Positions 32,986-54,451 of a stretch of DNA of 54,451 nucleotides are shown here, in pieces; the stretch's first letter is position 1; every line of letters begins with the position of its first letter. The DNA lies in the NCBI GenBank assembly GCA_023248955.1, contig JAHFDP010000020.1:1-54451 (forward strand), given 5' to 3'. The notes beneath the pieces were generated by a model. The model was not told where the DNA came from, ran no database searches, and saw nothing but the letters and a program-made list of their open reading frames with translations. The position numbers were made by a program, and so were the translations under genes. Origin of the DNA: Deltaproteobacteria bacterium. Its GTDB lineage: Bacteria > Myxococcota > Myxococcia > Myxococcales > JAHFDP01.

Positions 32986-33002
32986 CCGGAAAACCACAAG
33001 GC

Positions 33003-33485
33003 TTAGCCGCCGTATTTCCAACCAACATCAGCGAGAAGAAGCGGTCGCGGTGACTCGCTGCGAATGCCCGCTTCGATCACTTCGGCGACGACCACGGCAT
33101 GATCGCCGCCGTCGACGAAGTCGCGCACTTCGCACTCCACCCACGCCGCGCAGTCCGCGAGAATGGGCGCGCCGCTGCGACCGGTTTCGTAAGCAAGGTC
33201 CGCGATGCGGCCGTCCGCGCCAGTCGGGGCGCGAAAAAAAGTCTGCCCAACGGATTTTTGATCAGGACCCAGAAACGAAAGTGCGAATCGACGCTCGCGA
33301 CGTGCGTTGAGCTCCGCCGCGGAACCCATGCGCAGTGCCGCGACGATGAGCGGCGGTTTGAAGGAGGATTGGGTCATCCACGTAACGGTGGCGCCCGCGA
33401 CCTCGCCTCCAGCACCGCGCGTTCCGATCACCGCCGCGCACGACGGGAGCAGGAGCAGCGCTTTCTTTTTCGCTTCTTCATTCAT
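33003..33485 (-). CDS. Flavin reductase-like (FMN-binding split-barrel) protein
   Basis: 'GATVTWMTQSSFKPPLIVAAL' pattern typical of the flavin_reduct domain. ATG at 33485 (MNEEAKKK). Confidence 0.65.
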   Translation of the reverse strand: MNEEAKKKALLLLPSCAAVIGTRGAGGEVAGATVTWMTQSSFKPPLIVAALRMGSAAELNARRERRFALSFLGPDQKSVGQTFFRAPTGADGRIADLAYETGRSGAPILADCAAWVECEVRDFVDGGDHAVVVAEVIEAGIRSESPRPLLLADVGWKYGG

Positions 33486-38566: not shown

Positions 38567-38646
38567 GAATCCTCCGAAGGCGTGTTGGCGGTGTCGTCTT
38601 GCAAGCGCCGTGTTGTCAAGGCACCGAGCAGAGATATGCTTGGTGC

Positions 38647-39609
38647 ATGACGCTCCATCCGGTGGCTGACGAACTCCTGTTCCGCGATTCGGCTGCGGAT
38701 GATCCACGCCTTGGTTCGCTGGTGAAAACGGGCACCCTAGACGACGCGCGATCGCTCAAGCCAACGGTGGCGCTAATCGGACTGCCTGATGATCGTGGCA
38801 TCGTTGCGGGTAGCGGACGCGCCGGTGCGGCGGCTGGACCCACGGCGCTGCGGCGCATTTTTTACAAGATGACGCTGGGCGATCACGACGAACTCAGAGG
38901 ATGCGTGTTGTTCGATGCGGGCGATGTTGCATTGGCGCCCACGGTGGAGGAGACGCACGCTCACGCCGAGACCGCGGTATCGGAACTGTTGTCCACGGGT
39001 GCGCGGGTAGTGCTCCTCGGCGGCGGGCATGATGGCGCGTACGCGAGTCAAGCGGCATTGCTTGCGTCGCTCCCGCCCGAAGCGCGTGGTTCGGTGGTGA
39101 ATGTGGATGCACACTTAGATGTACGTCCGCTCAAAGACGGGACGATCATCACCAGCGGTACGGCGTTCCGGCGACTAGCCGATCGCTTTGGTGCGCGGCT
39201 AAAACTCGTGGAACTGGCCTCGCAGCCGCAGGTGACGGCGTCCGCACATCGCTGGTTTCTTGAGCAACGGGGCGACGTCGTGCAGTCGCTTCCCGAACTC
39301 CGCACGCACGCGCACGGCGTGGGAGCGGCGATGCGGTCAGCGCTCTCGGCTGCAGCATGGGCAACGACCGTCGGCGTATCGTTGTGTTTGGATAGCGTGC
39401 GTGCCGCGGACGCACCCGGTGTTTCCGCGCCGCAGCCGGATGGGCTTTCGGCCGCTGAATTTCTCGAGGTGGCGCAAGCCGCGGGCGAACATCGGCAGGT
39501 TCGTGTTTTGGATGTGGTGGAGCTTTCACCGCCGTTCGATCACGATGGACGAACGGCGCGTCTTGCGGCGCTAGCGGTGTGGCGTTTCTGCGCGGCTACG
39601 GTGCGCTAA
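38647..39609 (+). CDS. Arginase-family ureohydrolase (formiminoglutamase/agmatinase-like)
   Basis: Mn-binding motifs 'LLGGGHDGAY', 'VNVDAHLDVR', 'SLCLDSV', 'VLDVVELSPPFD'. Confidence 0.7.
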   Translation: MTLHPVADELLFRDSAADDPRLGSLVKTGTLDDARSLKPTVALIGLPDDRGIVAGSGRAGAAAGPTALRRIFYKMTLGDHDELRGCVLFDAGDVALAPTVEETHAHAETAVSELLSTGARVVLLGGGHDGAYASQAALLASLPPEARGSVVNVDAHLDVRPLKDGTIITSGTAFRRLADRFGARLKLVELASQPQVTASAHRWFLEQRGDVVQSLPELRTHAHGVGAAMRSALSAAAWATTVGVSLCLDSVRAADAPGVSAPQPDGLSAAEFLEVAQAAGEHRQVRVLDVVELSPPFDHDGRTARLAALAVWRFCAATVR

Positions 39610-39851
39610 TTTTTTTGAACGTCGGACTCGAAAAAAGCAACGACGCGCCAGCCACCTGCGGTTTGTTCTAGCGTGATGACGGTGTTGCGAAAAAAGGCCG
39701 GACCTCCCTCTGGCTGAATACGCAAGCCATAGGAGAAGGAGACCCGTCCGCTGCTGTCGGAGCGTTGGCCCGTCTTGTCCACGTAGACGTGACTGGTTTG
39801 CGGTTCGGGTGCCGCACCGCGTGCGGGATGCGATTCTGCAGAAAGTTTCAT
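39606..39851 (-). CDS. Small hypothetical protein
   Basis: ORF only; overlaps the ureohydrolase stop by 4 nt. Confidence 0.25.
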   Translation of the reverse strand: MKLSAESHPARGAAPEPQTSHVYVDKTGQRSDSSGRVSFSYGLRIQPEGGPAFFRNTVITLEQTAGGWRVVAFFESDVQKN

Positions 39852-40068
39852 CTCATTTCGAATCCGATCGGCCGCGGGACCAGAAGCAAGCGCAAGCGCC
39901 TGGGGCTGATCGACCGAGACCTAGTAGCGGTCGACGAAAGCATCGCTGGCGCCCTCGGCGGAATCGATTCTCTTGGCGCAGCCGATCCCGCTGGCGACGA
40001 TGCAAGCAATGGCGAATTGCAAGGGACCCTCGGTTGCGCGCCCGGTCGCGAAAGGCGAAAAGACGAGT

Positions 40069-40659
40069 ATGAAGATCTACACTAAACGAGGCGACGACGG
40101 CTCAACCGGCCTCTACGGATCGCCGACTCGAGTTGCCAAAAACGATCTCCGCGTTTCCGTCTACGGAGAAGTAGATGAGCTGAACGCGGTCTTGGGGCTG
40201 TGCCGAGCGGTATGGCAGGAGCGTGCGGCCCACACCGCTCCGCCAGGCAGCGTTGATCTCGATGTCGTTTTGGCGCGCCTCCAAGACGAACTTTTTCGAC
40301 TGGGAAGCGAGCTGGCCACGCCTGAAGGCGTCATGCCGCCGCCCCACCTCGCGCTCATTGCGATCGTGGACAGCGAGCGGATGGAGCGTGAAATCGATGC
40401 GCTGGAATTGGAGCTCGCGCCGTTGAAAAGTTTCATTCTCCCGGGTGGTTCGCAGGGCGCGGCGCACCTGCACGTGGCTCGGGTCGTTTGTCGCCGCGCC
40501 GAGCGAAGACTGGTGGAGTTCGCGGCGCGGACAACGTTGCGCGCGGAGGTGTTGACGTACGTGAATCGCCTGAGCGACCTGCTCTTTACTATGGCGCGCG
40601 CGGCCAACCACCGACTTGGTGCAGAAGAGACGAAGTGGGAGCCGAGAAAGCAGGCTTGA
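40069..40659 (+). CDS. PduO-type ATP:cob(I)alamin adenosyltransferase
   Basis: 'MKIYTKRGDDGSTGL.....V.K.DLRVSVYGEVDELNAVLGL'. Confidence 0.8.
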   Translation: MKIYTKRGDDGSTGLYGSPTRVAKNDLRVSVYGEVDELNAVLGLCRAVWQERAAHTAPPGSVDLDVVLARLQDELFRLGSELATPEGVMPPPHLALIAIVDSERMEREIDALELELAPLKSFILPGGSQGAAHLHVARVVCRRAERRLVEFAARTTLRAEVLTYVNRLSDLLFTMARAANHRLGAEETKWEPRKQA

Positions 40660-40716
40660 GCGATGCTGTGGTATTGGAAAAGAGTGGTGGACAGATTTCG
40701 ATTGGAAGGAGCGACA

Positions 40717-41145
40717 ATGGTCGATGCAGGAAAGCAGGCGCCCGATTTCTCGCTGATGGGCGATGACGGTAAGCCCTTCAGCCTCAAGGACGTGCGCGGT
40801 CAGCAGGTCATCCTCTGGTTTTACCCGATGGCCGACACCCCTGGTTGAACGAAGGAGGCTTGCGCCTTCCGCGACGTGCTCGCGGACATTCACAACAAGA
40901 CAGCAATTGTGGTCGGTGTTTCCCCGGACGCTGCGGCGGAGCAGCAGGCGTTTCGCGTGAAGTACAATTTGAATTTTCCGCTCCTGTGCGACATCGAGCG
41001 GAAGGTGGGGACGCTCTACGGCAATTACGACGGGGCGAAGTATTGGCGCAGTACGTTTCTGATTGGGGCTGATGGAATCGTGAAAAAAGTTTGGCCCAAG
41101 GTGAAAGTCGAAGGACACGCTAGCGAAGTCCTTGCCGCGCTCTAG
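40717..41145 (+). CDS. Bcp-type peroxiredoxin with in-frame UGA at the peroxidatic-Cys position (candidate selenoprotein; TGA 40846-40848)
   Basis: 'KQAPDFSL....GKPFSLKDVRGQQVILWFYPMADTPG[TGA]TKEACAFRD' is the Prx 'PxDxTPGC-T-x-E-AC' active site, with TGA where the Cys codon would be. The same frame continues to TAG 41143. GGAAGGAG SD before ATG 40717. Hairpin GAAGGAGGC-ttgc-GCCTTCC begins 4 nt after the TGA. Confidence 0.6.
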
Positions 41146-41508
41146 ATGAACGAACGAATTCCTCTCGGCGGTTTGCAAGAAAGGCAGAGCGTCCGTTTTG
41201 CGCTTCCTGCCGGTCGAGAGGGATTCGCGTTCATGCTCGATGGTGTTTGCCGGGCCTATCTCAATCAATGTGTGCATCGTGCTCAGCCTGTTGATGTTGG
41301 TGACGGGCAAGTGCTGACCAAGGATGGATTCCTGGAATGTGGTGCACATGGGGCCCTCTACAATCCAGTGGATGGTTCTTGCGCGGGTGGTCCATGCACC
41401 GGTGGTGGTTTGACGGCGATAAAGCTGGAACGTGATGGAGACGCGCTCTTCGCACTCGCCCTAGAGATTGAGCCTCCCGAGGATCTTTACGAGCTGTCGC
41501 TCGAGTAG
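41146..41508 (+). CDS. Rieske [2Fe-2S] domain protein
   Basis: 'CVHR' (CxH) ... 'CGAHG' (CxxH) 17 residues apart. Start abuts the peroxiredoxin stop. Confidence 0.7.
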   Translation: MNERIPLGGLQERQSVRFALPAGREGFAFMLDGVCRAYLNQCVHRAQPVDVGDGQVLTKDGFLECGAHGALYNPVDGSCAGGPCTGGGLTAIKLERDGDALFALALEIEPPEDLYELSLE

Positions 41509-41517
41509 ACTCTCGGC

Positions 41518-42954
41518 TTGACTCCACGCGCTCGCATCCGCGTTCGACTCCGCCAACATGACGTGGAGTCATTGCGTGCGAATTTCCATCCACTCACGCG
41601 TTCCGGGGCCTCGTTTCCGTCCGCAAGATCGCACCTTACTGGGGCCGCGGTTGAGGTCTTGTTCGCATTTGCAGGAGGCGAGGTCGCCTTTACCGCTCTC
41701 GGTGAGGTGCAATCCCAAGGCAACGGTCTGGTCGAAGTACGATTTGATTCCTTGGATGCTCTTGGAAAAGCACTTTGGGCCGAACTTTTCCCTGGCTGCG
41801 AATTGGGAAAATCGCTCGGCACACCCAGACCGTTCGCGATCGAAATTGGTTGGGGCGTCCTTAGTGCCTGCCTTAATCGCGATGGCGAGTTGGTCCATGT
41901 GACTGTACCTTTTTCCATCCAAGATACGCTCGCGTTGATGTGCCTTGGGCTCGCGCGAGGGTCGCCGCGCTTGCAAGCGCTGAACGAGAAGATCGTCGGT
42001 AAGTCCGGTCGTTCCGTCATCGAGGTTTTACCGGATGTTCGTCGCTCAATTGAGCGAAGTTCCGATGGACCGCTCGGCGCCGCTGTCTGGCTCGTGCCAG
42101 CTTCATTTACCTTTGCACAGAGGGCCGCGTTGAGGATCTCGGCAACGGCCGCTGGTCTTCCTGTTTCGGCGTTTTTTCCGCTAACGATGGGTCTCGGCGC
42201 CGCTTTCTCATTCGGGAAGCGTTGGACTGGCCGCCGAATCCTGGCAATCAACGCAAGCCAAACGATGTCGGAAGCGGCGCTAATCGTCGCGAAAGGAGAC
42301 CAGCTGGTAGCCGAGGCAGTTACTTGCGCAGCTCTCCCAGAGAACGTTTCGATTAACGAATTGATGCGAAGCCTCAGGAGTGAAAGGATAGATGCCGTTC
42401 TCCTTGCTGGAGACAGTGTCCAAACTTTAGGAAAAAGTGGCGGCAGCCTCGCCCCCGAAGAAGTCCTCCCGGAATGGGCTACCGTGGAAGGTGGCGCGTA
42501 CCTCGCCGCCGCGCTAGCGGAAGGTGCGCAGCCAGCCCTGGATATCTTGTCGGAGCCCATCGCCCTGGCGCAATCAGATGGCTCTCTCGTTCCTTTGATC
42601 ACCGCTTGCTCCTCGCTGCCTATGCAGCGTGCCTTAGAGATCGAGATTGCTAGATCGACCTATCTCTCGCTCTACAGCGGAGGGACGACCGTCAAATCCG
42701 CTGAGCTCATTTTTCACGCAGAAGTCCATGGTCCACGGGTCGTCCATCTTTCCCTGCACGTCGACTCCTTTGGATTCCACGTGCAGCTTTTTGATCGAGA
42801 AGGCACTTCGGTTCCCCTTCGCGTGCTTGAAAGTGATGCAATGCACGCTAGTGAGAGGCTTATTGCAGCTCCCAAGCCAACGGTTTACGAGCGACGCCAC
42901 GAGTTGTGGAGACTTTTGAAAGAACGGTGGCGACGCTCAAGTGTCGCAAATTGA
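41518..42954 (+). CDS. PilZ-like N-terminal domain fused to a degenerate Hsp70/actin-fold ATPase-like domain
   Basis: 'RARIRVR...LTRSGASF' has RxxxR and DxSxGG-like features. 'AVWLVPASFTFAQRAALRISATAAGLPVSAFFPLTMGLGAAF.....RRILAINASQT' aligns with DnaK '[41 protein letters not shown].....IAVYDLGGGT', but the DxGGGT phosphate loop is replaced. Confidence 0.5.
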   Translation: MTPRARIRVRLRQHDVESLRANFHPLTRSGASFPSARSHLTGAAVEVLFAFAGGEVAFTALGEVQSQGNGLVEVRFDSLDALGKALWAELFPGCELGKSLGTPRPFAIEIGWGVLSACLNRDGELVHVTVPFSIQDTLALMCLGLARGSPRLQALNEKIVGKSGRSVIEVLPDVRRSIERSSDGPLGAAVWLVPASFTFAQRAALRISATAAGLPVSAFFPLTMGLGAAFSFGKRWTGRRILAINASQTMSEAALIVAKGDQLVAEAVTCAALPENVSINELMRSLRSERIDAVLLAGDSVQTLGKSGGSLAPEEVLPEWATVEGGAYLAAALAEGAQPALDILSEPIALAQSDGSLVPLITACSSLPMQRALEIEIARSTYLSLYSGGTTVKSAELIFHAEVHGPRVVHLSLHVDSFGFHVQLFDREGTSVPLRVLESDAMHASERLIAAPKPTVYERRHELWRLLKERWRRSSVAN

Positions 42955-43092
42955 GATTGGTCGATTCAGATTTGAGACTCGACGATTCGGCGAAACAGGC
43001 CCTACGCTCTCGCTGCAATTCCGAATGTTTCTGGCACGACAATTGAAATGCTCTCCCCAGCGCATTGACGCGCATCAAAGAGGGGGAGTGGC

Positions 43093-44898
43093 GTGCAAAC
43101 AATGGGATGGGTGCGATGTGGATTCGCGACGGGTCTGATGGCGCTTTCGTGTGCGCCGCGGCATTCTGCGGATCCGAAACCGGTAACAGGCGAAATTTTG
43201 GTGAAGCTTCGTCGTGCGGGCGAACCGCCGGCGCGGCTACCGTCAAACAGTAAAACCACTGTTATTGCCACAACCGTGCGTAGTGGGGATGAGGGTGGGC
43301 CGCTCTTGCGGTGGCCGATTTCGTCAGAGCTCGATCCTGCGGACGTTGCTCAAAGTGCTGCGCAGGATCCGGCAGTTGAGTATGCCGAGCCCGTCTATCG
43401 GTACAGCTCATTTCTTCATCCATCTGATCCCAAATACAAAGATCAATGGGCACTCAAGACGATCAACGCCGAACAGGCTTGGAGTGTCACGACCGGAAGT
43501 AAAGATGTCGTCGTTGCGATTGTAGATTCCGGCATCGATCTCAAACACGCCGATCTCAAGGCGAACATTTGGCGAAATCCAGGAGAGGTTGCCGGTAACG
43601 GCTCCGACGACGACGGAAATGGTTATGTCGATGACGTGAATGGGTGGGATTTTGTCGGCGACACCAATGATCCGTCGCCCAAGGGGGAAGACTCACCGGA
43701 GACTTGGCACGGTTCGCACGTCGCGGGCACAATTGGCGCTGTCGGTAACAACAAGAAGGGTATCACCGGCGTTGCCTGGAAAGCGCAGCTCATGGCGGTT
43801 CGCGCTATCGGACCGGGGGGCGGACGAGCAGACCAGTTGGCCGCGGGAATTGACTACGCGGTAGACAATGGTGCCCGAATCATCAATGCCAGCTGGGGAG
43901 GTTCTTCGCGAAGCGAAACCATCGCCAGGGCAATCGCTCGCGCGGGTCGTTCTGGCGTCCTCTTTGTCGCGGCAGCAGGAAATGACAGTGCAGAAGGCGC
44001 CGGCTTTCCAGCCAACCTAACTAACCGAAACATCATTTCGGTCGGAGCATCAGCTCCCGACGACAGCTTGGCTGATTTTTCCAATCGAGGGTCTGGAGTC
44101 ATGGTTGCTGCTCCCGGGGTATCGATTCTCAGCACCACCGCGCCGGGCCGGTATGAGCTCCTGGACGGTACCTCGATGGCTGCACCGCACGTGAGCGGCC
44201 TGGCAGCGCTCCTTTTGGCTGATGACTCGACACTCTCCGTCAAAGCACTGCGCGATTCCATTTTTAACGGGTGCACACGACCGCCAGCGCTTGTCGAAAC
44301 TCGATACGGGAGAATTGATGCTGGGCAATCCCTTTCGTTGGTCAAGGGGGTCAGCGTGAATGCTTCGAAACTTCTTGCCTCGCGCAATGCGATCTCGCTG
44401 CGTGCAGCGCCTGGGGGCAAAAGCCGCTCGTCGTCGCTCAAACTTCGGGGAGAGGATGGATCCGCGGTTAAGTGGACGGCCGCAAGCGATCAGCCGTGGC
44501 TCGCGCTTTCAGCGACGGAAGGCGTAACGCCTTCCCAATTGACAATCTCGGCGGATGCTTCAGCCTTCGCGCAGGGTACTCAGCAGGCAATCATCACGAT
44601 TTCAGATGGAAGTGGCGCCACGACAATATCGACCGCGCTCGAAGTTGGAGAAGTTCCCCGTTTGGCAATCGCTGCGACGGGCGGGTGCGCTCTTCAGGGC
44701 ACAATTTTGGATGCCAAGGCAGGCAAGCCCTGTGCGCTCTCGGTCGATGGTAACGAGGAGGCCCACGCGCGGTGGGACATCGATGGACAGGTGGTGCTCG
44801 GTAAGAGCGTTCTGCTGAGCCTCGTTCCTGACGCGCGAACGATTTCCCTGAGGGTGGGTTTGGAAAAGCTCGATGTTCAAGTCAGGGTGTCGCCATGA
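43093..44898 (+). CDS. Secreted subtilisin-like serine protease (peptidase S8) with C-terminal extension
   Basis: Signal peptide. Asp box 'VAIVDSGID', His box 'HGSHVAGTIGA', Ser box 'GTSMAAPHVSG'. Confidence 0.85.
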   Translation: MQTMGWVRCGFATGLMALSCAPRHSADPKPVTGEILVKLRRAGEPPARLPSNSKTTVIATTVRSGDEGGPLLRWPISSELDPADVAQSAAQDPAVEYAEPVYRYSSFLHPSDPKYKDQWALKTINAEQAWSVTTGSKDVVVAIVDSGIDLKHADLKANIWRNPGEVAGNGSDDDGNGYVDDVNGWDFVGDTNDPSPKGEDSPETWHGSHVAGTIGAVGNNKKGITGVAWKAQLMAVRAIGPGGGRADQLAAGIDYAVDNGARIINASWGGSSRSETIARAIARAGRSGVLFVAAAGNDSAEGAGFPANLTNRNIISVGASAPDDSLADFSNRGSGVMVAAPGVSILSTTAPGRYELLDGTSMAAPHVSGLAALLLADDSTLSVKALRDSIFNGCTRPPALVETRYGRIDAGQSLSLVKGVSVNASKLLASRNAISLRAAPGGKSRSSSLKLRGEDGSAVKWTAASDQPWLALSATEGVTPSQLTISADASAFAQGTQQAIITISDGSGATTISTALEVGEVPRLAIAATGGCALQGTILDAKAGKPCALSVDGNEEAHARWDIDGQVVLGKSVLLSLVPDARTISLRVGLEKLDVQVRVSP

Positions 44899-44943
44899 TT
44901 CCGCGCTGGACATCGTTTCCGTCCGCACCGTACGCTCGCGGCA

Positions 44944-45825
44944 ATGACAGCAAAGGAATTGCAGCAGCTCCCGCTCGACGAATTGCGACGGCGTTTTTTG
45001 GGTTCCACTTCCGGGTCTCTTCCGCGTGGTGGGCTTGCTGCGCTCCGAGCGGATGAGCGCCAAGGCGCGCGCGCGCTGGCGGAGCGCATTGCCAGATCGG
45101 GACGAGAGGCGCAGGCGGAGGGGCGGCGCTTGGCGAGACTTCTCGTGTTTGAGCAGTCGCTCTGGTCGCGAGGGATCAACCTCATCGCTGGTGTTGACGA
45201 GGCAGGGATGGCCCCATTGGCGGGACCAGTTGTCGCCGCCGCTGCGATCTTGCCGCCGGGTGTTCAGGGACTTGTCTCAATTAACGATTCGAAATTGCTG
45301 CTTCCCGAGGAGCGGGAAGATCTCGTTCCTCGGATTAAAAGCGTCTCCGTTGCCTGGGCGATTGGAATCGCGTCGGAGGCGGAAATTGATCGACTCAACA
45401 TTTATCACGCGGGGCTTTTGGCCATGCATCGCGCAGTGACTGGACTGTCTGTTTCGCCGCAACACCTGTTGGTGGATGCTCGAAAGGTTCCCGATATCTC
45501 GATGCCGCAGCAAGGAATCGTCAAGGGCGATACCAAGAGCATGTCGATTGCCGCAGCCAGCATCTTGGCAAAGACCTACCGCGATCAGGTGATGCGGAAT
45601 CTTGACGTGAAGCATCCAGGGTACGGCTTTGCTCAACATAAGGGTTATCCGACTCCGGAGCATCTGGCGGCACTCTCGAGACTTGGTGCCTGCGACGTTC
45701 ACCGACGGTCGTTTGGCCCGGTTCGGGAAGCTCCACGTCTCGACGGAATTCAGCCGGACTTTACTTTTGAAAATCAATTTGGGGAGGCGACACCCAACGG
45801 CACCGCACTGCATTCATCGAGCTAA
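44944..45825 (+). CDS. rnhB: Ribonuclease HII with ~75-aa N-terminal extension
   Basis: 'IAGVDEAGMAPLAGPVVAAA' and 'DSKLL' of the RNase HII active site. Confidence 0.8.
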   Translation: MTAKELQQLPLDELRRRFLGSTSGSLPRGGLAALRADERQGARALAERIARSGREAQAEGRRLARLLVFEQSLWSRGINLIAGVDEAGMAPLAGPVVAAAAILPPGVQGLVSINDSKLLLPEEREDLVPRIKSVSVAWAIGIASEAEIDRLNIYHAGLLAMHRAVTGLSVSPQHLLVDARKVPDISMPQQGIVKGDTKSMSIAAASILAKTYRDQVMRNLDVKHPGYGFAQHKGYPTPEHLAALSRLGACDVHRRSFGPVREAPRLDGIQPDFTFENQFGEATPNGTALHSSS

Positions 45826-45877
45826 GAAGAAACTCGAACCCGTTTCCGGCGTCGGGGACCGCCGAAGGCCGGTGAAA

Positions 45878-46196
45878 ACTAAGCCGGAAATCCACAATTG
45901 CCGTTACCTACGACGGCCGATCGCGGCCCGTCTACTTCGGTGCTTGCCGCGCATATTGAAAGCGCGGCCGGCCCGATTGGTGGCGCTGGAAGCGCCCGAT
46001 CACATAGCGGGCTCCTCCGGTGCCTCCTCAGCGCACCGAAAAGTGCGCTTTAAGGGGGCTTGCTCGCCGCAAGCGGCCCCCCTCTGTCGCTGCGCGACAT
46101 CTCCCCCGGTACCGGGGGAGTCCCCTCGTCCGCGCCTCGCAGCCGAGCCACGCTCGGCCGTCTCGGTTCCACTGCAACTGTGGATTTCCGGCTAAG
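45878..46196 (-). mobile_element. MITE-like element copy B (intergenic, inverted relative to copy A)
   Basis: The reverse complement matches 31041-31357 over the full length, including both terminal inverted repeats. Lies between rnhB and hemW. Confidence 0.75.
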
Positions 46197-46206
46197 AATC
46201 CTATTC

Positions 46207-47391
46207 TTAGAAGAATTGCAGCGCGATTTCGCTGTGCAGATCGAGACCACGCTCGGTCAGCGCAAGTCGCTGGCCGTTCCACGATGCGAGCCCGCGCTCG
46301 ACGAGCGAGCCGATCGTTTTTTCGTGGCGCGCGCGCGCCGGAAGGCCCAATTCCTCCTCGAGCAGGGCGAGATCGATTCCCGCCACACGGCGTAAACCCG
46401 TCAGAAACCGCTCCCGCAGCAGTGCCTCGGCATCAAGCTCCTCGACGGTCGCCACGGCCAGCTCGGTGCGTCCAGACTCGATGGCCTCGAGGTAGCGCCC
46501 GACCGCTCGCTCGTTGATGGTGCGACGGCCGCGCGGAGTAATCGGATCGCGCCAGAGCCCAACGGCGCCGTTGCCCGCCTGCACGACATCGGCGCCTTCC
46601 CAATAAAGTGCGTTGTGCACAGCCGTGCGGCCCTCCTTCGCGAAATTGGAAATTTCGTAACGGACGATTCCGCCACGCGCGAGCTCCTCTCGTACCGCCG
46701 CGCCCATCTGCGCCTGCGTCTCCTCGTCGGGAAATTTGAGATCGCCGCGCTCCCAGGCCCGCGCCATCGGAACCGGCACCGCCAGCTCGGTTAACGTCAG
46801 CGCGTAACAGGAGATGTGCTCGGGAGAAAGCGCCACTGCCCGCGCCGCATCGGCCCGAGCATCGCCAACCGTTTGCGTGGTGTCACCGTGAATGAGATCG
46901 ATCGAGAGATTGTCAAAACCCGCCGCGCGCGCCTCGGACACAGCACGCGCGGCATCCGCTCCACTGTGCCGGCGCCCAAGCGCGACGAGTGAGGGTGAAG
47001 CAAACGACTGCACGCCAAGCGAGAGTCGGTTGACGCCCACCTCACGGTAAGCGCGAAGGCGAGCCGCATCGCAACTTTCGGGATTTGCCTCCAACGTGAT
47101 TTCCGCCGCGCGCCCGAGGCCAAAATGCGCGCGGCCGGCAGCGATCACGTGGGCAACGCACGCGGGCTCCCACAGACTCGGCGTCCCACCTCCAAAATAG
47201 AGCGAGACCGCTTCGCGCCCAGCGTAGAGCGCGGCCCGCGCGGCGAGTTCCTTGACCACGGCCGCCGCATAACGCTCGTGCGGAATGCGCGCAGCGACCG
47301 CCACGGCGAAATCGCAATACGGGCAAATATGCGAGCAGTAGGGGAAGTGGACGTAGATACCGAATGGACGCACGGCCGCCGAACCTAACAC
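46207..47391 (-). CDS. hemW: Radical-SAM heme chaperone HemW (HemN-like, oxygen-independent coproporphyrinogen oxidase family)
   Basis: 'YVHFPYCSHICPYCDF' is a CxxxCxxC radical-SAM motif, followed by 'GGGTPS'. Confidence 0.8.
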   Translation of the reverse strand: MLGSAAVRPFGIYVHFPYCSHICPYCDFAVAVAARIPHERYAAAVVKELAARAALYAGREAVSLYFGGGTPSLWEPACVAHVIAAGRAHFGLGRAAEITLEANPESCDAARLRAYREVGVNRLSLGVQSFASPSLVALGRRHSGADAARAVSEARAAGFDNLSIDLIHGDTTQTVGDARADAARAVALSPEHISCYALTLTELAVPVPMARAWERGDLKFPDEETQAQMGAAVREELARGGIVRYEISNFAKEGRTAVHNALYWEGADVVQAGNGAVGLWRDPITPRGRRTINERAVGRYLEAIESGRTELAVATVEELDAEALLRERFLTGLRRVAGIDLALLEEELGLPARARHEKTIGSLVERGLASWNGQRLALTERGLDLHSEIALQFF

Positions 47392-47473
47392 CGCAACCCA
47401 ATCCCGCCTGCCACGTTGACGTGTCCGAGAGACTGCGTTAGGTAGGCCAAGCTCCCGAAAACGCTTTTCGGTG

Positions 47474-47566
47474 GGAGAGGTGGCCGAGAGGCCGAAGGCG
47501 CTGGTTTGCTAAACCAGTATAGGGCCAAAAGCTCTATCGTGGGTTCGAATCCCACCCTCTCCGCCA
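47474..47566 (+). tRNA. tRNA-Ser (anticodon GCU), long variable arm
   Basis: GGAGAGG acceptor stem, anticodon loop tTGCTAa, long extra arm, TTCGAATCC T-loop, 3' CCA encoded. Confidence 0.85.
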
Positions 47567-47575
47567 GTACAAAAC

Positions 47576-47652
47576 GGACCTTTAGCTCAGTTGGATAGAG
47601 CGTCGGACTACGAATCCGAAGGCCGCAGGTTCGAATCCTGCAAGGTCCGCCA
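47576..47652 (+). tRNA. tRNA-Arg (anticodon ACG)
   Basis: GGACCTT acceptor, D-arm AGCTCAGTTGGATAGAGC, anticodon loop CTACGAA, GGTTCGAATCC T-arm, CCA. Confidence 0.9.
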
Positions 47653-47699
47653 TTTCAATCCCCGACAACGATTGCCGATTTCCGAGGGCACTGTTCGCC

Positions 47700-47905
47700 A
47701 ACTGGACGGGGATCCCAGTCGTCGGTGACACAGCGGTGCTATGGCGCGCAAGTTTGCCGGTGGCCGGAAGCGTGTTGACGGCTGCGCGAAGGTCCTCCAC
47801 GTCGAGGTGCCCGTAGGTCGACGTGGTGGTGCGCATGTCCGCGTGACGAAGGATTCGCTGGACGTAGTGGGGATTGGTTCCGTTGCGCTGATAGACGCTC
47901 GCCAT
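47700..47905 (-). pseudogene. Tyrosine-integrase C-terminal remnant
   Basis: 'VYQRNGTNPHYVQRILRHADMRTTTSTYGHLDVEDLRAAV' carries the R..H..Y catalytic tail only. A TAG stop and the Xis gene lie immediately upstream. The rest of the ORF is antisense tRNA read-through. Confidence 0.6.
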
Positions 47906-47911
47906 GTCGAC

Positions 47912-48142
47912 CTATCTTACCACTGCGGAAAGTGGCGCCAGGCTTGGCTGCCATTCGCCACGAACATAGGCGCGGATGGCGGCGGGCTCGAAGCGCAGCA
48001 TCGCGCCGACCTTGAAGCAGGGAAGAATTCCGGCCTCGGCGCGCTGGTAGACCCAAGAGCGCGAGCAGTTGAGAAAAGCAGCGACCGCGGCAACGGTCCA
48101 AAGCGTTTCATCGGACTGCGGGACAGACGGAATGACGCTCAT
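47912..48142 (-). CDS. AlpA/excisionase-type helix-turn-helix protein
   Basis: 'WTVAAVAAFLNCSRSWVYQRAEAGILPCFKVGAMLRFEPAAIRAYV' fits the Xis/AlpA pattern (LT..E.A..L.VS..T.Y.....G.LP..K.G...RF...). Confidence 0.6.
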   Translation of the reverse strand: MSVIPSVPQSDETLWTVAAVAAFLNCSRSWVYQRAEAGILPCFKVGAMLRFEPAAIRAYVRGEWQPSLAPLSAVVR

Positions 48143-49341
48143 GCAAGCCTCCGGAGGCCCTTGCGGGCGAGTAGATCGACGAAAAACGTGCGCTCTGTTT
48201 CAGAGGGATAGGCGGGAACTGGGAGTCCCCTTTCGCGAGCGTCCGCGCGAATGTCTTTCAACCTGTCGTAGATGCCGGCGGAGAATTTCAGAGCGCGAAT
48301 GGCCTCATCGTCGGTGAGAAAACCGGTCCGTTCTTGCACGACGACAGGTGTGCTCGCGGGTTTGGCCACCGCATTTCGGAGGCCAAGGAAGCCGGAAAAA
48401 ATCGCTGGTGCTTCCTCGAACGTCATCGCGTGAGCACGGAGATCGAACCGCGACGAAAACTCGCTCGCCTGCCCGTCTTCCTTGCGCCACTCTTCGATGG
48501 TGCGCCGCACCGAATCCCGGCGTGCCGCCGTGGGAACGGTGAAGACAAGTTCGCCCGGAAAGCCATCGGGAAACGCCTGCTGATAGAAGGTCGTTCGCGT
48601 CGACCCGTCCGCGTAGCTTCTGTAGAATTCCGAGTAGCGACGCAATTTCGAAAGCGTCGAGCCAGATTTTTCGTCGGCGTTTGAAAGCGAGTGACCGCCC
48701 ATTTCGCACTCGATGAACCAGCGTCGGCGGACAGGCGCGCTCTCCAAAATGGCATCGGGTTCGATGCGCTTGTTCTGAACGGCGCCAAGTTTGCGGTCGT
48801 ATTGTTTCCACGGAAGACGAGACGACTCTGACGTCGTCCAACGAAAAGATTGGTGCACGGGCGCCGCATCGGTTTTTCCATCGCCGCCGCGCGCCGCAGT
48901 TGCCAGCGCGACGTACAAATCGCTCAGCGCGATCGCATGCTCGAGCAGTTGGTACCCAACATCGTCGGACGGAATTTTCACGTCGCGCCCGAGGACCCGG
49001 GAGGCCGCTTCGTATCCCATCTCCGCCAACCGCCAGACCGCGAGGGGCGTGCCGTAATAGGTGCGATATTTCAGGGCCGCCACGAACGGTCCACGGGCGG
49101 GCGGCACCGACAAAACTTCGAGCCGCCGCCGGACTACGCGATCGGAACGGCATGGAAAGACGAGGCGGGCGATTTGGCTGGAGGTCAGGTAACGCGCCAC
49201 GGCGAGGTGCCCCAACAGGACCAGATCTCGTTTTGTAATTCTCGACGCCTTTTTCGCTCTCTCCTTTGACGCTTCTATCGCTTCACTCGGCGCCGCCCAC
49301 ACTTCTCCGTTGACCCTTGTTCCGTCCTCGTCCTTCGACAT
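48139..49341 (-). CDS. Replication-relaxation (Replic_Relax-like) family protein
   Basis: N-terminal winged-HTH 'LTSSQIARLVFP.RSDRVVRRRLEVL' typical of the family. Long purine-rich leader with AAGGAGGA SD. Confidence 0.5.
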   Translation of the reverse strand: MSKDEDGTRVNGEVWAAPSEAIEASKERAKKASRITKRDLVLLGHLAVARYLTSSQIARLVFPCRSDRVVRRRLEVLSVPPARGPFVAALKYRTYYGTPLAVWRLAEMGYEAASRVLGRDVKIPSDDVGYQLLEHAIALSDLYVALATAARGGDGKTDAAPVHQSFRWTTSESSRLPWKQYDRKLGAVQNKRIEPDAILESAPVRRRWFIECEMGGHSLSNADEKSGSTLSKLRRYSEFYRSYADGSTRTTFYQQAFPDGFPGELVFTVPTAARRDSVRRTIEEWRKEDGQASEFSSRFDLRAHAMTFEEAPAIFSGFLGLRNAVAKPASTPVVVQERTGFLTDDEAIRALKFSAGIYDRLKDIRADARERGLPVPAYPSETERTFFVDLLARKGLRRLA

Positions 49342-49594
49342 AGCCGCTCCTCCTTTCCGTCGGACTCCGCTCCAGCTAGTTCGCCTCGCCCCCTACGATT
49401 CGCCTCCGTCCTCGTTTTCTCGGCTCTTGCTCTTCCGTTCTTCTTGTCTCTTTCAACCCCACTGAAACCACATCATATAATTTTCATTTGTAATCTAATT
49501 CAATTCTACTTCAAGTCAATATTGAATCTTGAGCACTCCCGTCAACCACCTCCAACCAGGTCCCATCTCTTCAATCCAAACCCTGCCTTGGGAT

Positions 49595-49650
49595 CATTTA
49601 CCCCTGACCCCTCTCTCGTCGTTGGGAGAGAGGGGTCAGGGGTAAATGAG
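49595..49650. promoter_or_regulatory. Perfect palindrome with 20-bp arms (TTACCCCTGACCCCTCTCTC-n8-GAGAGAGGGGTCAGGGGTAA) in divergent AT-rich intergenic region
   Basis: Read directly from the sequence. Lies between the divergently oriented Replic_Relax and metalloprotease genes, next to a ~100-bp AT-rich stretch. Confidence 0.5.
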
Positions 49651-49989
49651 ACCGACGAAGTGCGCAGCGGCTACAGTCGACGAAGGACCTGGTTGCCAGC
49701 GGAGAGCGAGGTTTGCGCGCGGGAGATTGATCCGCCGAAGGCAATCGGACCTGTCCGGCCGCCTATTCCAGTGATCCGAAGAATCTAACGGATATGTAAA
49801 CGGATATTTGTAACGCTGACTTCGGATCACCCAGCGACAGCGTTGACGCTGGAAATTTTGGAATGGCGAACAACAAAACTCGGCGAGCTTATTCTTCTCG
49901 GCCTGTTTTCCTCGACGTACGAGATACGACAGTGGGTCCGTTTGAAACCACACCGACCATCCACCCTCGCCAAAAAGCAAGCGGCCGCC

Positions 49990-50150
49990 TGTGTTACCAC
50001 CCGCTTCAGTAAATGGGCCGGTCCTCCCTCGCTTTCCTTCTGCCTTTGGTATTCGCCGCCTCGAGAGCCGGCGAATCGCGAGCCGCGGCCCGCTTCGGTG
50101 AACACCCCGGCCAGCCAAAACGTGGCCGAGCGCCTCCGAGTGATCTACTG
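49990..50150. repeat. ~160-bp direct repeat (copy 1); copy 2 at 54297-54451
   Basis: About 90% identical. Covers the upstream region, start codon and signal-peptide coding region of two paralogous genes. Confidence 0.75.
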
Positions 50151-50993
50151 GTCCGAGATGATTTTGCGTATTCGGGTCGAGCCGAACATCGATTCCGGAC
50201 GAAGCCGATCACCAATTCCGACGCATTTTTGCTCCGAAGCAAATCGAGCGAAGGTAGCGAACTCCAGAAACCAATCCGCGTCATCCCGACGCGAGAGCGG
50301 CGCGAGAAGATAAAGCGGGGCTCCAACGCGCCTCCGCCGCCACCCAGCGGCGTCGCTGCCCGATCTACGGAGTGGGGCAAACCCGATCCCGCGAGGCTAT
50401 CGCTCACGCGGAAGATGGTTGCCGCCCGAGGAACCGCCGACCACAAGGACGCTGAGTTGGTGGCGCACGAGATCGCGCGATTTCCTGAACCGATCCTTCA
50501 ACGATTGGCCGCACAGGGAACGCGGGTAATTGCGGTCCGCGACTCGACCACTGAGTATCATACGCATTTACGCGGAGTTCGCCCTCGCGGATGGCCACCG
50601 GACGCTACCTGGGACTCGGTTCCCGGAACCGGGGACCAGCACGCCCTCGTCATTGCGACGAGGGGCCACGGAACCCCGGTCGGAGCACACACTCCCCATT
50701 TCGGAGATGGCCACGGAAGCTTCTCGATGCCTTTGCATGAGACGCTTCACTCGATCGATCGTGGGAACGGAAGCAAGTTTTCGCATGACGAAGGTTTCGC
50801 GGTGGCGAGGACTGCCGACCTAGCGGCTTTGGATTCGTATTTGCAGCAACCAGGAGCGGCCGGATTGGAGGAGACTTTTGCCGAGACTGGAGCACGCTTC
50901 TTTGCCGGCGATCCGACCCTCGAGCACGCGTGCCCCAACCTCTATCGGTTCTGGAAGGAAGATCCGCTTGGGCTGTGGCGAAACGCGAGATGA
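50013..50993 (+). CDS. Secreted HExxH zinc-metallopeptidase-like protein (effector/toxin-like)
   Basis: Signal peptide MGRSSLAFLLPLVFAASRA. 'HETLHSIDRG' (HExxH) with Glu/Asp downstream ('SKFSHDEGF'). Poly-Pro 'NAPPPPPSG'. Confidence 0.5.
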   Translation: MGRSSLAFLLPLVFAASRAGESRAAARFGEHPGQPKRGRAPPSDLLVRDDFAYSGRAEHRFRTKPITNSDAFLLRSKSSEGSELQKPIRVIPTRERREKIKRGSNAPPPPPSGVAARSTEWGKPDPARLSLTRKMVAARGTADHKDAELVAHEIARFPEPILQRLAAQGTRVIAVRDSTTEYHTHLRGVRPRGWPPDATWDSVPGTGDQHALVIATRGHGTPVGAHTPHFGDGHGSFSMPLHETLHSIDRGNGSKFSHDEGFAVARTADLAALDSYLQQPGAAGLEETFAETGARFFAGDPTLEHACPNLYRFWKEDPLGLWRNAR

Positions 50994-50994
50994 C

Positions 50995-51312
50995 ATGCGG
51001 AGAATAGTTGTCACAGTCGCTTTCGTCGGATCGCTTGGATGCAAGACGCCGATCGCGCACACTCCTCGCCCCCCATCAAAATCCGATTTGCCTGTGAACG
51101 AGAGGACCATGGAGAACATTGGAACCGCGACTATGGAAAGCGACGGGACCATTGTCCTTCGACTGCGCGCAGAGGATGGCAACGGAATGGTCGGCCAAGG
51201 CCGAATCACGTACCCGCCGACGCACAAATCCTATCAGGACGTGCTCCGCCATTTAGGCGGATTGAAAAAGGGAGAGGAAAAGCCCGTTCCTCCATGGCCC
51301 GATTTGCCATGA
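50995..51312 (+). CDS. Small lipoprotein (105 aa) abutting the metallopeptidase; possible cognate inhibitor/immunity protein
   Basis: 'MRRIVVTVAFVGSLGC' is an SPII lipobox. Its ATG lies 1 nt after the upstream TGA. Confidence 0.45.
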   Translation: MRRIVVTVAFVGSLGCKTPIAHTPRPPSKSDLPVNERTMENIGTATMESDGTIVLRLRAEDGNGMVGQGRITYPPTHKSYQDVLRHLGGLKKGEEKPVPPWPDLP

Positions 51313-51502
51313 GCCACCGGATTCGCCAGCCGAGAGGAGGTCGACCGGCACGTGTCCGCGACCTTCTCGGCCGGTTTCGCAGCGGGCACGCTCGTGAAGC
51401 CGGATGGCTCTCAGCTCCCATTTCCGCGTCCGATGGTCAGGACTTCGGCTGGCTCGGGTAGGTGCTGGCCTCATCGATGTTCGGCCTTCCGTCTCGATGC
51501 AA

Positions 51503-51790
51503 CTACGCTGGATCGAAATGCAGCTTCACGTTCACCGAATCTAAAACGGATAAGAACGTGTCCAGTCGCGGATTTCCATTCTTGGACAGCGCCTTGTAGA
51601 GGCTCTCCCGACCGCGCGCCGCGCGCTTGGCGACCTGCGCCACGCCCCTGGCCCGCGCGATGTCCCGCAGCGCCAAGAGCAATTCCGATTTGCCTTCCGC
51701 GAAGGCCGCGGTGAGGTACTCCGCGGCGAATTCCGGATCGCCAAGTCGTGCGTCGAGTCCCTCGGTGTACGCTTTGACTTTCCGTTTCAT
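51503..51790 (-). CDS. HigA/TIGR02684-type addiction-module antidote (HTH) protein
   Basis: 'DPEFAAEYLTAAFAEGKSELLLALRDIARARGVAQVAKRAARGRESLYKALSKNGNPRLDTFLSVLDSVNVKL'. Confidence 0.7.
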   Translation of the reverse strand: MKRKVKAYTEGLDARLGDPEFAAEYLTAAFAEGKSELLLALRDIARARGVAQVAKRAARGRESLYKALSKNGNPRLDTFLSVLDSVNVKLHFDPA

Positions 51791-52149
51791 CATTCGCTCC
51801 CTTGGTATTCGATCCAATATTCTTTCGCCCGCCTGATATCGGCCGCCTGGGATTTCTTGCTACCGCCAGCGAGTAGGACAACCAGCCGCTCTCCATCGTG
51901 CGCGAAATAGATCCGGTACCCAGGTCCGTGGTCTACCCGCAGTTCGTGAACGCCTCCGCCGACCGGCTTGGCATCGCCAAAATTTCCCGAACGAACCCGC
52001 AGAAGCCTTGCGTCGATGCGCGCTCGAGTCTTCGTGTCCTTCAACCCCATCAGCCAAGCGCGAAACGGGACCTTTCCGTTGGTGTCGACGAATTCGACAA
52101 GTTCTCGTTCGGTGATCACGTTCAAGTTGTATCCAAAAAGATACAACAC
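51790..52149 (-). CDS. RelE/ParE-superfamily (TIGR02683 'addiction module killer') toxin
   Basis: 'FRAWLMGLKDTKTRARIDARLLRVRSGNFGDAKPVGGGVHELRVDHGPGYRIYFAHDGERLVVLLAGGSKKSQ..DIRRAKE'. True start probably internal. Confidence 0.7.
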   Translation of the reverse strand: MLYLFGYNLNVITERELVEFVDTNGKVPFRAWLMGLKDTKTRARIDARLLRVRSGNFGDAKPVGGGVHELRVDHGPGYRIYFAHDGERLVVLLAGGSKKSQAADIRRAKEYWIEYQGSE

Positions 52150-52434
52150 GTCAAGCGTTTTGCTGTCTTGCTTTGGGGGCTATACGCGGTGCGTTTTTCA
52201 TCGGCAATGCTGCCGGAGTCGGCGAGAGCAACCCCGAATCGAATTCGACGCCCGCACGTGTTGTCAGCTCGCGTGTTCGCACGGTCCGTACACCGTCGCC
52301 GCCGGCACCCCAAGCCACGACGCCATGGTGAGCCTGTCGCGCGCGCGCCATTGATTGAGATGATCAAGACCAGGGGCGGCGGCTCGCTGGCTGCCGCACT
52401 GGCGATTGCGCCCACACTGCGGCATGATGTCGAC

Positions 52435-52713
52435 ATGACTCGTCCAAGCGTTGTCATCGCCTGGAACCGTCGCGCCAACGCCTACGTCGCTCGAATGACG
52501 ACGCGCGCCGGAGAGCTCGCACGTGGGGCGACGCTGTCGGAGACCGCTCGCAAGCTTGCCGAAGCTATCGACCCGGCGGTCCAGCTTGATGCGGTCTTTC
52601 GCAAGGTCGCGGCGTTCCAGAAGGCGCACAAGGTCAAGCCGCTCTCGATGAAGGAGATCGACGCGGAGATCAAGATTTACCGCGAAGAGCGCGCTCGGCG
52701 CCGCCGCGCGTGA
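52435..52713 (+). CDS. HicB-like (UPF0150 fold) antitoxin partner of the PIN toxin
   Basis: 'PSVVIAWNRRANAYVARMTTRAGELARGATLSETARKLAEAI'. Stop overlaps the vapC start. Alternative start at 52360. Confidence 0.45.
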   Translation: MTRPSVVIAWNRRANAYVARMTTRAGELARGATLSETARKLAEAIDPAVQLDAVFRKVAAFQKAHKVKPLSMKEIDAEIKIYREERARRRRA

Positions 52714-53129
52714 GGCTCGTTTTCGACACCAACGTTCTCGTGTCGGCGCTCATCACACCGAAGGGGACAGCGCGCCGATCAATCGACGCCGCTATCCACT
52801 CAACGGCCATCGTTCTCTACGATGAGCGAATTCTCCTCGAGTACGCGGAAGTCACGACCCGTGCGAAGTTTCGCGGAAAGTATCCGCCGAATGCACCGCG
52901 CGAACTCCTGCTCGCGTTGCTGGCACGAAGCGAGTCAGTTGTCGGATCGCCAAGCGACCTGGTATTGCCGGATCCAACGGACGCGCCGTTCCTGGAAGTT
53001 GCAATTGCTGGCCAGGCCGACGCAATCGTCACGGGAAACGCCAAGCATTATCCGGCCAGCTCGGGGGTTCCCATTTTCTCGCCGCAGGACCTCGTGCGGC
53101 GTCTGCACCAACAGCGTCCAGATCGCTGA
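52710..53129 (+). CDS. vapC: PIN-domain toxin (VapC-like)
   Basis: 'MRLVFDTNVLVSALI', acidic residues in 'YDERIL', and 'AIVTGNAKHY'. Confidence 0.8.
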   Translation: MRLVFDTNVLVSALITPKGTARRSIDAAIHSTAIVLYDERILLEYAEVTTRAKFRGKYPPNAPRELLLALLARSESVVGSPSDLVLPDPTDAPFLEVAIAGQADAIVTGNAKHYPASSGVPIFSPQDLVRRLHQQRPDR

Positions 53130-53144
53130 GTGACGGTTATTGGC

Positions 53145-53313
53145 TCACCTGCGCCGAACAAATTCCGACAGCGCACCCGGCTCAACCCGAATCGAATTCG
53201 ACACCCGCACGTGCTTGAGCTCACCTCGCTCGCACAGTCCGTACACCATCGCCGTCGACACCCCAATCCACGCCGCCACCTCGCGTACATTTAATAGACG
53301 CGAACCAAAATTC
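53145..53313 (-). CDS. Second AlpA-type HTH gene (short)
   Basis: Hand translation of the minus strand: 'REVAAWIGVSTAMVYGLCERGELKHVRVSNSIRVEPGALSEFVRRR*'. A degraded copy of the same ~100-bp segment lies at 52225-52325. Start uncertain. Confidence 0.4.
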
Positions 53314-53443
53314 GGTGACACAGCGGTGCTATGAAATATGAAAACCGGCGCTAACGGTCCACTGAATGTAATTTAGCGGAATCGGTTTCCGCAATACTTC
53401 CCATAGCTTGCGAAGCCTCGTCACTCGCTGCGAATCCATTTCC

Positions 53444-53515
53444 CAGACCTACGAATCCGAAGGCCGCAGGTTCGAATCCTGCAAGGTCCGCCATTTTAAT
53501 CCCCGACAACGATTG
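53444..53515 (+). repeat. Partial tRNA-Arg 3' half plus flank (attR-like direct repeat)
   Basis: 'CTACGAATCCGAAGGCCGCAGGTTCGAATCCTGCAAGGTCCGCCA' plus 'TTTtAATCCCCGACAACGATTGCCGA' duplicates 47608-47679. Confidence 0.75.
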
Positions 53516-54245
53516 CCGAGCGTAATTTCTCTACCATCCACGGCCAGCCCACGCCTTCGACAAGACGGTATGGAAAAGCATGTCCGATTCCGAGAATCTC
53601 TCGAAGTTCAACTTCGCTTTCCGGTTGACCAGCAACAAAGGCGCGAACGTGTTCGATGGGAAAGAGTCGATCGTCGATCCCGTGAACAAAAAGCGTTGGC
53701 ACGTGGGCTAGCCGAACGTTGCACCGCCATGGTGCGGCAGCGAATGCAACGATGCCAAGAATGCGCTTAGCAAGGGTGTCGCCCAATTCCCAGGCCGTGT
53801 TGGCTCCCGCCGAGAGACCGACGACAACGACCGGTTGTCCGACAAGGCGACCCATGGCTTGCTCTACGACCTCGTTTTTTGTCGCCTCGGTCCAAGTGGG
53901 GCTGACGAGGTGAATCGCGTGTGCTTGGAGAAGCTCATAGAAGACCGCGGCAAACCGGCGGCCAGTGTCCTGAGCGCCATGCAAAGCAAGCACCCCGACC
54001 TGCGCAACGCCCACCTTTGGCCGCAATCCCAGACCGTCCGCGCCGATCGGTTCAACCTCGTAGTGCGGCTCGAGCGCCGCGAGCAGCCGCAACGAAAGAC
54101 GTTCGTGCAAGTCCAAGAGGAGGTTGGGCGATGACTGTACTGGTTCCTGCAAGCCGAGATATTTGCAAAGGTCGCTGGCGTTCGGCGGCAGTGGTCCTCC
54201 GAGACCAAAGCGCTCCAGAATTGTCGCGGCATCGAGGATGTCCAT
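53496..54245 (-). CDS. Alpha/beta-hydrolase fold protein (esterase/lipase-like)
   Basis: Nucleophile elbow 'VVVGLSAGAN' and 'LFVHGIDDRLFP'. Start set at the MDILDA ATG. Confidence 0.65.
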   Translation of the reverse strand: MDILDAATILERFGLGGPLPPNASDLCKYLGLQEPVQSSPNLLLDLHERLSLRLLAALEPHYEVEPIGADGLGLRPKVGVAQVGVLALHGAQDTGRRFAAVFYELLQAHAIHLVSPTWTEATKNEVVEQAMGRLVGQPVVVVGLSAGANTAWELGDTLAKRILGIVAFAAAPWRCNVRLAHVPTLFVHGIDDRLFPIEHVRAFVAGQPESEVELREILGIGHAFPYRLVEGVGWPWMVEKLRSAIVVGD

Positions 54246-54330
54246 AGTCGGCGGGGCAGCGCGAAGGAGTATAGCCCGCGGATGCATCGATCGCGCCTGT
54301 GTTACCACCCCGCTTCAGTAAATGGGCCGG

Positions 54331-54451
54331 TCCTCCGTCGCATTCCTTCTGCCTTTGGTATTCGCCGCCTCGAGAGCCGGCGAATCGCGAGCCGCGGCCC
54401 GCTTCGGTGACCCCCCCGGCCAGCCAAAACGTAGACGAGCGCCTCCGAGCC
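54331..54451 (+). CDS. Paralog of the HExxH metallopeptidase-like gene, 3'-truncated by window end
   Basis: 'MGRSSVAFLLPLVFAASRAGESRAAARFGDPPGQPK...' is the same signal peptide as the 50013 gene, and lies within the direct repeat. Confidence 0.5.

Follow-up and report, generated by a model that had tools for sequence, protein, structure and literature searches.

An inverted second copy of a ~310-bp MITE in the rnhB–hemW gap of an uncultured bacterium of probable Myxococcota affiliation

In the window, i.e., the whole stretch of 54,451 nt analyzed here, which equals one complete NCBI contig, the convergent genes rnhB (ribonuclease HII, 44944–45825, plus strand; NF000594, 289.6 bits at a cut-off of 243; Pfam RNase_HII) and hemW (radical SAM heme chaperone, 46207–47391, minus strand; TIGR00539, 237.7 bits at a cut-off of 205.4; Pfam Radical_SAM and HemN_C) are separated by a 381-nt gap. 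The gap houses a segment that resembles, in the opposite orientation, a part of queG. What is this segment, how may it have come to lie between the two genes, and does it have a function there? An earlier reading of the locus, made from the sequence only, took it for an intergenic second copy of a MITE between convergent rnhB and hemW; the placement holds, both gene models being above the NCBIfam cut-offs.

The reverse complement of window positions 45879–46196 matches positions 31041–31357 over the full length, with 92.1% identity in 318 columns (MAFFT, BLAST). In the global alignment the copy in queG (copy A) and the copy in the rnhB–hemW gap (copy B) show 25 differences, one of them a 1-nt indel; a repeat search splits the match into two adjacent inverted arms, one 179 nt long at 92% and the other 143 nt long at 93%. 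When 50-nt flanks are included in the MAFFT alignment, the similarity ends exactly at CTNAG on either side, and the flanks are unrelated. The ends of both copies are formed by a 22-nt terminal inverted repeat, GCCGGAAATCCACARTTGCCGT. This pattern has four matches in the window, which are the four ends of copies A and B, each with 0–1 mismatches, and no matches in 100 dinucleotide shuffles of the window. The inverted repeat extends imperfectly further, to ~57 nt at 79% (BLAST). The alignment, the terminal-repeat search, and the inverted arms confirm the sequence-only reading of a full-length inverted second copy at about 90% identity, both terminal repeats included; as the alignment runs end to end, a shared short palindrome is excluded as the source of the similarity.

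The element proper of copy B occupies 45883–46192 (310 nt, GCCGG...CCGGC), and that of copy A, with the opposite internal orientation, 31045–31353 (309 nt). In copy B the left terminal inverted repeat is at 45883–45904 (plus strand; end type 1, ...CCACAATTGCCGTTACC; 0 mismatches), and the right one at 46171–46192 (minus strand; end type 2, ...CCACAGTTGCAGTGGAACC; one mismatch to the pattern). The interior holds a 69-nt unit (45942–46010 in copy B) whose copy number varies between elements. The element is GC-rich (66–68%) and 309–310 nt long, with variants of 185 and 455 nt. It has no coding capacity of its own: no Pfam domain is found in any called ORF of the element or in the queG insert, and the reading frames differ when compared across copies.

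Public assemblies annotate genes for long ORFs that cross MITE copies: 45629–46195 (plus strand, 188 aa), 31009–31362 (minus strand), P0122, and P0123. These ORFs again lack domains and are artefacts of GC-rich, stop-poor repeat sequence.

An exhaustive HMMER search with the spurious 117-aa ORF across copy A against 1.84 billion representative proteins returned two proteins, both encoded on other contigs (L053 and L054) of the same ENA sample, in copies with the same terminal ends as in the window. The L053 copy is flanked by TTTAG and CTTAG and carries the 69-nt unit in three copies (Tandem Repeats Finder: period 69, 3.0 copies, 99% matches), compared to one in A and one in B; the L053 sequence comes from a k=141 short-read assembly, which does not guarantee repeat counts of this kind. 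The L054 copy, a 185-nt deletion form with CTTAG at both flanks, lacks the 69-nt unit and a further block of 63 nt; in the four-copy alignment both its deletions end in short direct repeats. Element-proper identities among the copies are 90–95%; copy B is closest to the L053 copy (95.1%), followed by the L054 copy (93.8%) and copy A (92.9%). The terminal 48 nt contain two of the 29 variable columns, compared to 4.5 expected if variation were uniform. Separately, positions 8101–8166 of L054 hold an isolated ~81% copy of the 69-nt internal unit, between two other palindromes and away from terminal repeats.

A shorter trace of the element was found at 32981–33006, where CTTAG is followed by CCGGAAAACCACAA+GG (16 nt) and again by CTTAG, the CTNAG sites being at 32981 and 33002. 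The 16 nt equal the first 14–15 nt of the terminal repeat plus the last 2–3 nt of the element, and BLAST aligns 19 nt of this region with the end of the element, at E 0.014 in the window. We read the region as a MITE remnant with an internal deletion; the stop codon of an EamA-family gene (32104–32985) falls within it. In total, four copies and one remnant lie in unrelated contexts on three contigs, within ~93 kb examined of one uncultured genome, two of the four copies having turned up in a search aimed at the element. Terminal repeats and target duplications (described below), no domain or conserved frame, and four copies in four contexts bear out the earlier assignment to MITEs, and 45879–46196 is a genuine second copy of a ~310-bp MITE without a transposase gene.

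The pentamer bounding each side is CTGAG at copy A and CTAAG at copy B (45879–45883 and 46192–46196). With CTTAG at the L054 copy and at the remnant, and TTTAG/CTTAG at the L053 copy, five sites can be compared. The middle base of the pentamer is the same on both sides at all five; four of the five have an identical 5-nt CTNAG on both sides, and the L053 pair shares the core TTA. The outer four bases of CTNAG are self-complementary and so might be assigned to the inverted repeat; however, the middle base is identical on the two sides, not complementary, which an inverted repeat would not give, hence, the pentamers represent a target-site duplication. The duplicated cores are TGA (copy A, 31042–31044 and 31354–31356), TAA (copy B, 45880–45882 and 46193–46195), and TTA (three times), so that the middle base is A or T at four sites. 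The L053 flanks, T-TTA-G on the left and C-TTA-G on the right, fit a 3-bp and not a 5-bp duplication, although this is the only site where the two can be separated, and a point mutation or an assembly error there would explain the difference equally well. The target sequence is C|TNA|G, and the duplication is most likely the 3-bp TNA; in place of the TA or CT duplication suggested earlier, the comparison of flanks gives a TNA core within C|TNA|G.

CTNAG occurs 60 times in the 54-kb window (~1 per 900 nt), and seven of these occurrences are ends of the elements described here, which likewise speaks for a target-site duplication. The rnhB stop codon TAA (45823–45825) lies within the first CTAAG. 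It is followed by a 54-nt companion unit (45826–45879, plus strand), which is TAA-bounded (CTAAG...CTAAG) and extends to copy B. Copies of this unit, 98% identical, adjoin the MITE at L053 10489–10607 (two in tandem, period 57) and at L054 10152–10208; the unit stands beside three of the four MITE copies and never alone in the 93 kb. It has no terminal repeat and no stable fold. The unit abuts one MITE end type in the window and the other in L053 and L054, hence, it is not a fixed extension of the MITE. A derivation of the unit from the MITE was considered and rejected, the local alignment score being 16, compared to 16.9 ± 2.3 for shuffles, and terminal repeats being absent.

The companion unit is not accommodated by a simple MITE model. 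In one reading, later insertions pile up at the same place, since CTNAG is recreated on both sides. Such recreation of the target by each insertion may also explain why gene stop codons cluster with the element and the companion unit, each of TAA, TGA, and TAG being compatible with the target motif. Subtraction of 57 and 313 nt from the 381-nt gap leaves an 11-nt spacer between the stop codons, a plausible ancestral state of rnhB–hemW. In the closest HemW relatives (64% and 58% identity) rnhB is not adjacent to hemW, hence, they provide no empty-site comparison. For annotation, the 381-nt gap is almost entirely inserted DNA.

Copy A lies within queG, a 441-aa ORF (30782–32107) in which QueG is matched in two stretches. 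The insert plus one duplication equals 312 nt, or 104 codons, in frame and with no stop in the queG frame. All 119 listed QueG homologues are 315–395 aa long, compared to 441 aa here, and none has an insert of ~104 aa; 54 aligned homologues show no insert at the position of copy A. PDB structures of QueG have ~9 residues where the QueG of the window has 110, and excising the 312 nt gives back a contiguous QueG alignment. AlphaFold predicts the QueG core with high confidence, while residues 86–188, between two strands, have pLDDT <50 and no secondary structure; the insert is thus modelled as a disordered loop. For annotation, the 441-aa QueG corresponds to a normal ~337-aa enzyme plus a transposon-derived loop.

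Copy A had been described as coding only by virtue of where it landed, and the comparison of copies agrees with that: the queG frame, open through copy A, is frameshifted and stopped in copy B, the length difference of the L054 copy is not a multiple of 3, and the homologues lack the insert. With two of six frames open in copy A and a GC content of 68%, the chance of an in-frame, stop-free landing is ~1 in 10, so that no special explanation is needed. The closest queG relative (L049, 69% protein identity) is syntenic and too diverged to show the ancestral CTNAG, the empty site for copy A being informative at the protein level only. An intein or intron in queG was rejected, given no Pfam or Rfam signal and the intergenic position of the same sequence elsewhere. 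A word-index protein search with the 109-aa queG insert missed the QueG of the window itself (P0001) despite its presence in the database, and was set aside.

A scan for the terminal repeat gave 21 matches in GTDB species genomes, compared to ~17 expected by chance in 596 Gb, 25 matches in JGI metagenomes, and one in IMG/VR; all are single, and none extends beyond 19–29 nt. None of the three collections, GTDB, JGI, and IMG/VR, contains the element. It is also absent from related contigs of the nearest relatives; the best named relatives of the contig's proteins are metagenome-derived "Myxococcales bacterium" genomes at ~55–58% identity. An ENA metagenome contig is 99.98% identical to window positions 36207–54451, and a Logan assembly contig carrying hemW stops after reaching 30 nt of the element, the expected behaviour of assembly at repeats. 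As far as these searches reach, the family is so far confined to one uncultured bacterium of probable Myxococcota affiliation. A full-text literature search returned no paper describing MITEs in myxobacteria, and a literature search by sequence string returned primer coincidences only.

BLAST against plasmids and phages gave no related element, and an internal 30–48-nt module alone matched. This 48-nt two-hairpin module, the sole part of the element matching anything public, is located at 46073–46125 in copy B (plus strand; CCCCCCTCTGTC-hairpin-GACATCTCCCCC-loop-GGGGGAG; 64.7 bits with a covariance model) and at 31112–31164 in copy A. Outside the host it is found in L051 (600–650), L052 (401–445 and 505–565), L058, and L059. 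A Rhizobium tropici plasmid has it at either end of a ~160-nt unit, a Deinococcus plasmid has it in intergenic DNA, and unverified faecal "phage" scaffolds contain it as well. The small hairpin covaries across the occurrences. The covariance model found no further instance in the 427 kb of loci examined, and the module has no Rfam family and no match in the literature. Two speculative suggestions, to which we give little weight, would make the element more than a passenger: the module may act as a DNA or RNA signal borne by different mobile elements across phyla, and the queG copy may be a tolerated or used 104-residue loop in the manner of the Rickettsia RPEs.

How did copy B arrive? A transposase encoded elsewhere in the genome would bind the conserved 22-nt terminal inverted repeats, excise or copy the element, and insert it at a palindromic C|TNA|G, staggered cuts and repair leaving TNA duplicated on each side. 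The partner, acting in trans, would most likely be a DDE transposase of the IS5 family (IS1031 group) or of the PIF-Harbinger type. Copy B would have landed at CTAAG just past the rnhB stop codon, beside the companion unit, in the former 11-nt spacer, and is most likely a neutral passenger, lying in the 3' untranslated region of rnhB if read-through occurs. Copy A would have landed in a surface loop of QueG and been tolerated because 312 nt keep the frame without a stop codon. We give this explanation as a whole, i.e., a non-autonomous ~310-bp MITE mobilised by an IS5/PIF-Harbinger-type transposase, with copy B as a neutral passenger, a probability of about 0.8. The transposase family, the mobilisation in trans, and the neutrality are parts that we infer, and it is the target signature alone that points to an IS5/PIF-Harbinger-type partner.

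No transposase or full-length insertion sequence with these terminal repeats was found in the window, L053, L054, or the plasmid collection. The ends of IS1031/IS427-type elements in ISfinder are usually GAG or GG, which is a tendency and not a definition. The ends here read GCCGG and have no similarity to ISNme1 (GAGACCTTTGCAAAA), an example of that usual pattern (PMC4596501), or to any plasmid-borne insertion sequence.

One alternative is a different mobilising family that produces a 5-bp CTNAG duplication, the element being a Tn3-derived miniature or having a partner of IS1380, ISH3, or IS701/ISAba11 type. The four sites with identical pentamers and the ends other than the GAG typical of the IS1031 group would agree with it, but TTTAG facing CTTAG at L053 does not. 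Tn3-type elements have GGGG ends and are not known to use such a C|TNA|G target, which counts against that candidate. Moreover, strictly palindromic targets in which only the middle base varies are on record for the IS5/PIF-Harbinger superfamily (PMC4482050, PMC1676026), and we consider a 5-bp family unlikely.

Another alternative concerns the role of copy B rather than its origin, namely, that it was co-opted as a two-way barrier between rnhB and hemW, one that would terminate transcripts, stop 3' exonucleases, or be cut by RNase III. The two strands of the element fold at -180.6 and -197.1 kcal/mol, far better than shuffles (z about -10); no terminator-like site is present between the rnhB stop codon and the element; and such roles are listed for MITEs in reviews (PMC10969869). 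However, the terminal repeats and palindromic modules by themselves account for the strong fold. Copies A and B show no two-sided pair change in the covariation check, and among the 13 variable pairs of the three full copies 8–9 break pairing and 1–2 are compensatory; structure as evidence of function was rejected on the ground that the variation mostly breaks predicted pairs. Further, none of the element's hairpins has a T-run behind it, a terminator-like hairpin of hemW itself precedes the element (46219–46234), and the same element lies within queG, where termination would harm. A transcript-barrier role of copy B is possible but unsupported, and its odds are low.

Less probable still is a mosaic of REP/BIME- or RIME-type palindromic units, spread by a RAYT-type enzyme, recombination, or slippage. 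Such an origin would account for the loss, triplication, or solitary occurrence of hairpin modules (the 69-nt unit and its isolated copy in L054), for a companion unit without terminal repeats, for the module common to small repeats of Rhizobium and Deinococcus, and for the missing transposase. On the other hand, it is hard to reconcile with the good conservation of the 22-nt terminal inverted repeats, the presence of a site-specific duplication at each copy, and the same ends in four unrelated contexts, one inside a gene. REP/BIME elements are not known to have terminal repeats or duplications. Here, both are present, and copy A lies inside queG, outside the intergenic-only range of such elements. 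Finally, a duplicated gene for a structured non-coding RNA, suggested by the folding z-score, can be dismissed as highly improbable, with no Rfam family matching the element (at the gathering score the window yields two tRNAs only, and at E up to 5 the region 45800–46280 yields nothing but a 10-bit chance match), no promoter-like site found at the element, no support from covariation, one copy located within a protein-coding gene, no consistent orientation of the copies with respect to adjacent genes, and target duplications.

The preferred reading, a MITE mobilised in trans, places the element among several known kinds. IS5-derived MITEs (Neisseria ATR, linked to ISNme1, and the MITEs of Porphyromonas gingivalis; PMC4596501) are likewise short, with terminal inverted repeats and no transposase, and the IS1031 group of the IS5 family shares the TNA target preference (PMC1676026). 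BrickBuilt of P. gingivalis likewise has an internal tandem unit of variable copy number (PMC4596501). In contrast, the terminal repeat of IS5-derived MITEs, GAGACC..., is unrelated to GCCGGAAATCC... here; they are AT-rich, whereas the present element is GC-rich; and here the parent insertion sequence was not found, the host being an uncultured, probable Myxococcota bacterium. The NuwaII group of the PIF/Harbinger-IS5 superfamily has an identical C|TNA|G target and the same ambiguity between 3 and 5 bp (PMC4482050), and the A or T at the middle base of four of the five sites resembles the TWA of Harbinger elements. NuwaII and Tourist/mPing are, unlike the element here, eukaryotic and have two-gene autonomous partners (PMC4482050); the likeness is one of target, and similarity in sequence is not expected.

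Like copy A, the RPEs of Rickettsia and QMITE1 of Coxiella form in-frame, stop-free loop insertions in housekeeping enzymes, the added peptide having no known function (PMC10969869, PMC5896051). They differ in that the present data contain a single in-frame case, the element otherwise lies between genes, and QueG here is a predicted enzyme; RPEs are also shorter, ~150 bp compared to 309–310 nt. We know of no RPE that leaves duplications. BIMEs of enterobacteria and RIMEs of Rhizobium are likewise built of modular hairpin blocks varying in number, and the small R. tropici repeat has the 48-nt module in common with the element, which differs from them by its true terminal repeats, target duplications, and insertion into genes. 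In-frame MITE insertions and MITEs with internal tandem units have already been described (PMC10969869, PMC5896051, PMC4596501), and the element is a new family of a well-known kind. The understanding of MITEs is unchanged by these findings, which extend the C|TNA|G target of IS5/Harbinger elements to a GC-rich MITE from a probable Myxococcota bacterium.

The window contains several other repeats. A second MITE-like unit of ~200 nt at 19102–19304 has 38-nt arms, 87% complementary (TTAGAGCGGTTTTCATTTGCGT...), and ends in GAG, as in IS5-family elements; it is present in a single copy in the data examined. The tandem repeats of 129–153 nt at window positions 1–605 resemble the RCC1-repeat gene repeats in L054 (68–79% identity). 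The region 47474–53519 is a probable integrated mobile element adjoining two tRNA genes (47474–47563 and 47576–47649), with a 71-nt direct repeat of the tRNA 3' end at 47608–47678 and 53449–53519 (99%). Between these repeats lie an integrase C-terminal fragment, a Replic_Relax protein, and PIN and Gp49/HI1420 toxin–antitoxin genes. A further direct repeat of ~155 nt with 96% identity, its copies spaced by 4.3 kb, occurs at 49986–50140 and 54294–54449, on or outside the border of the tRNA-linked island.
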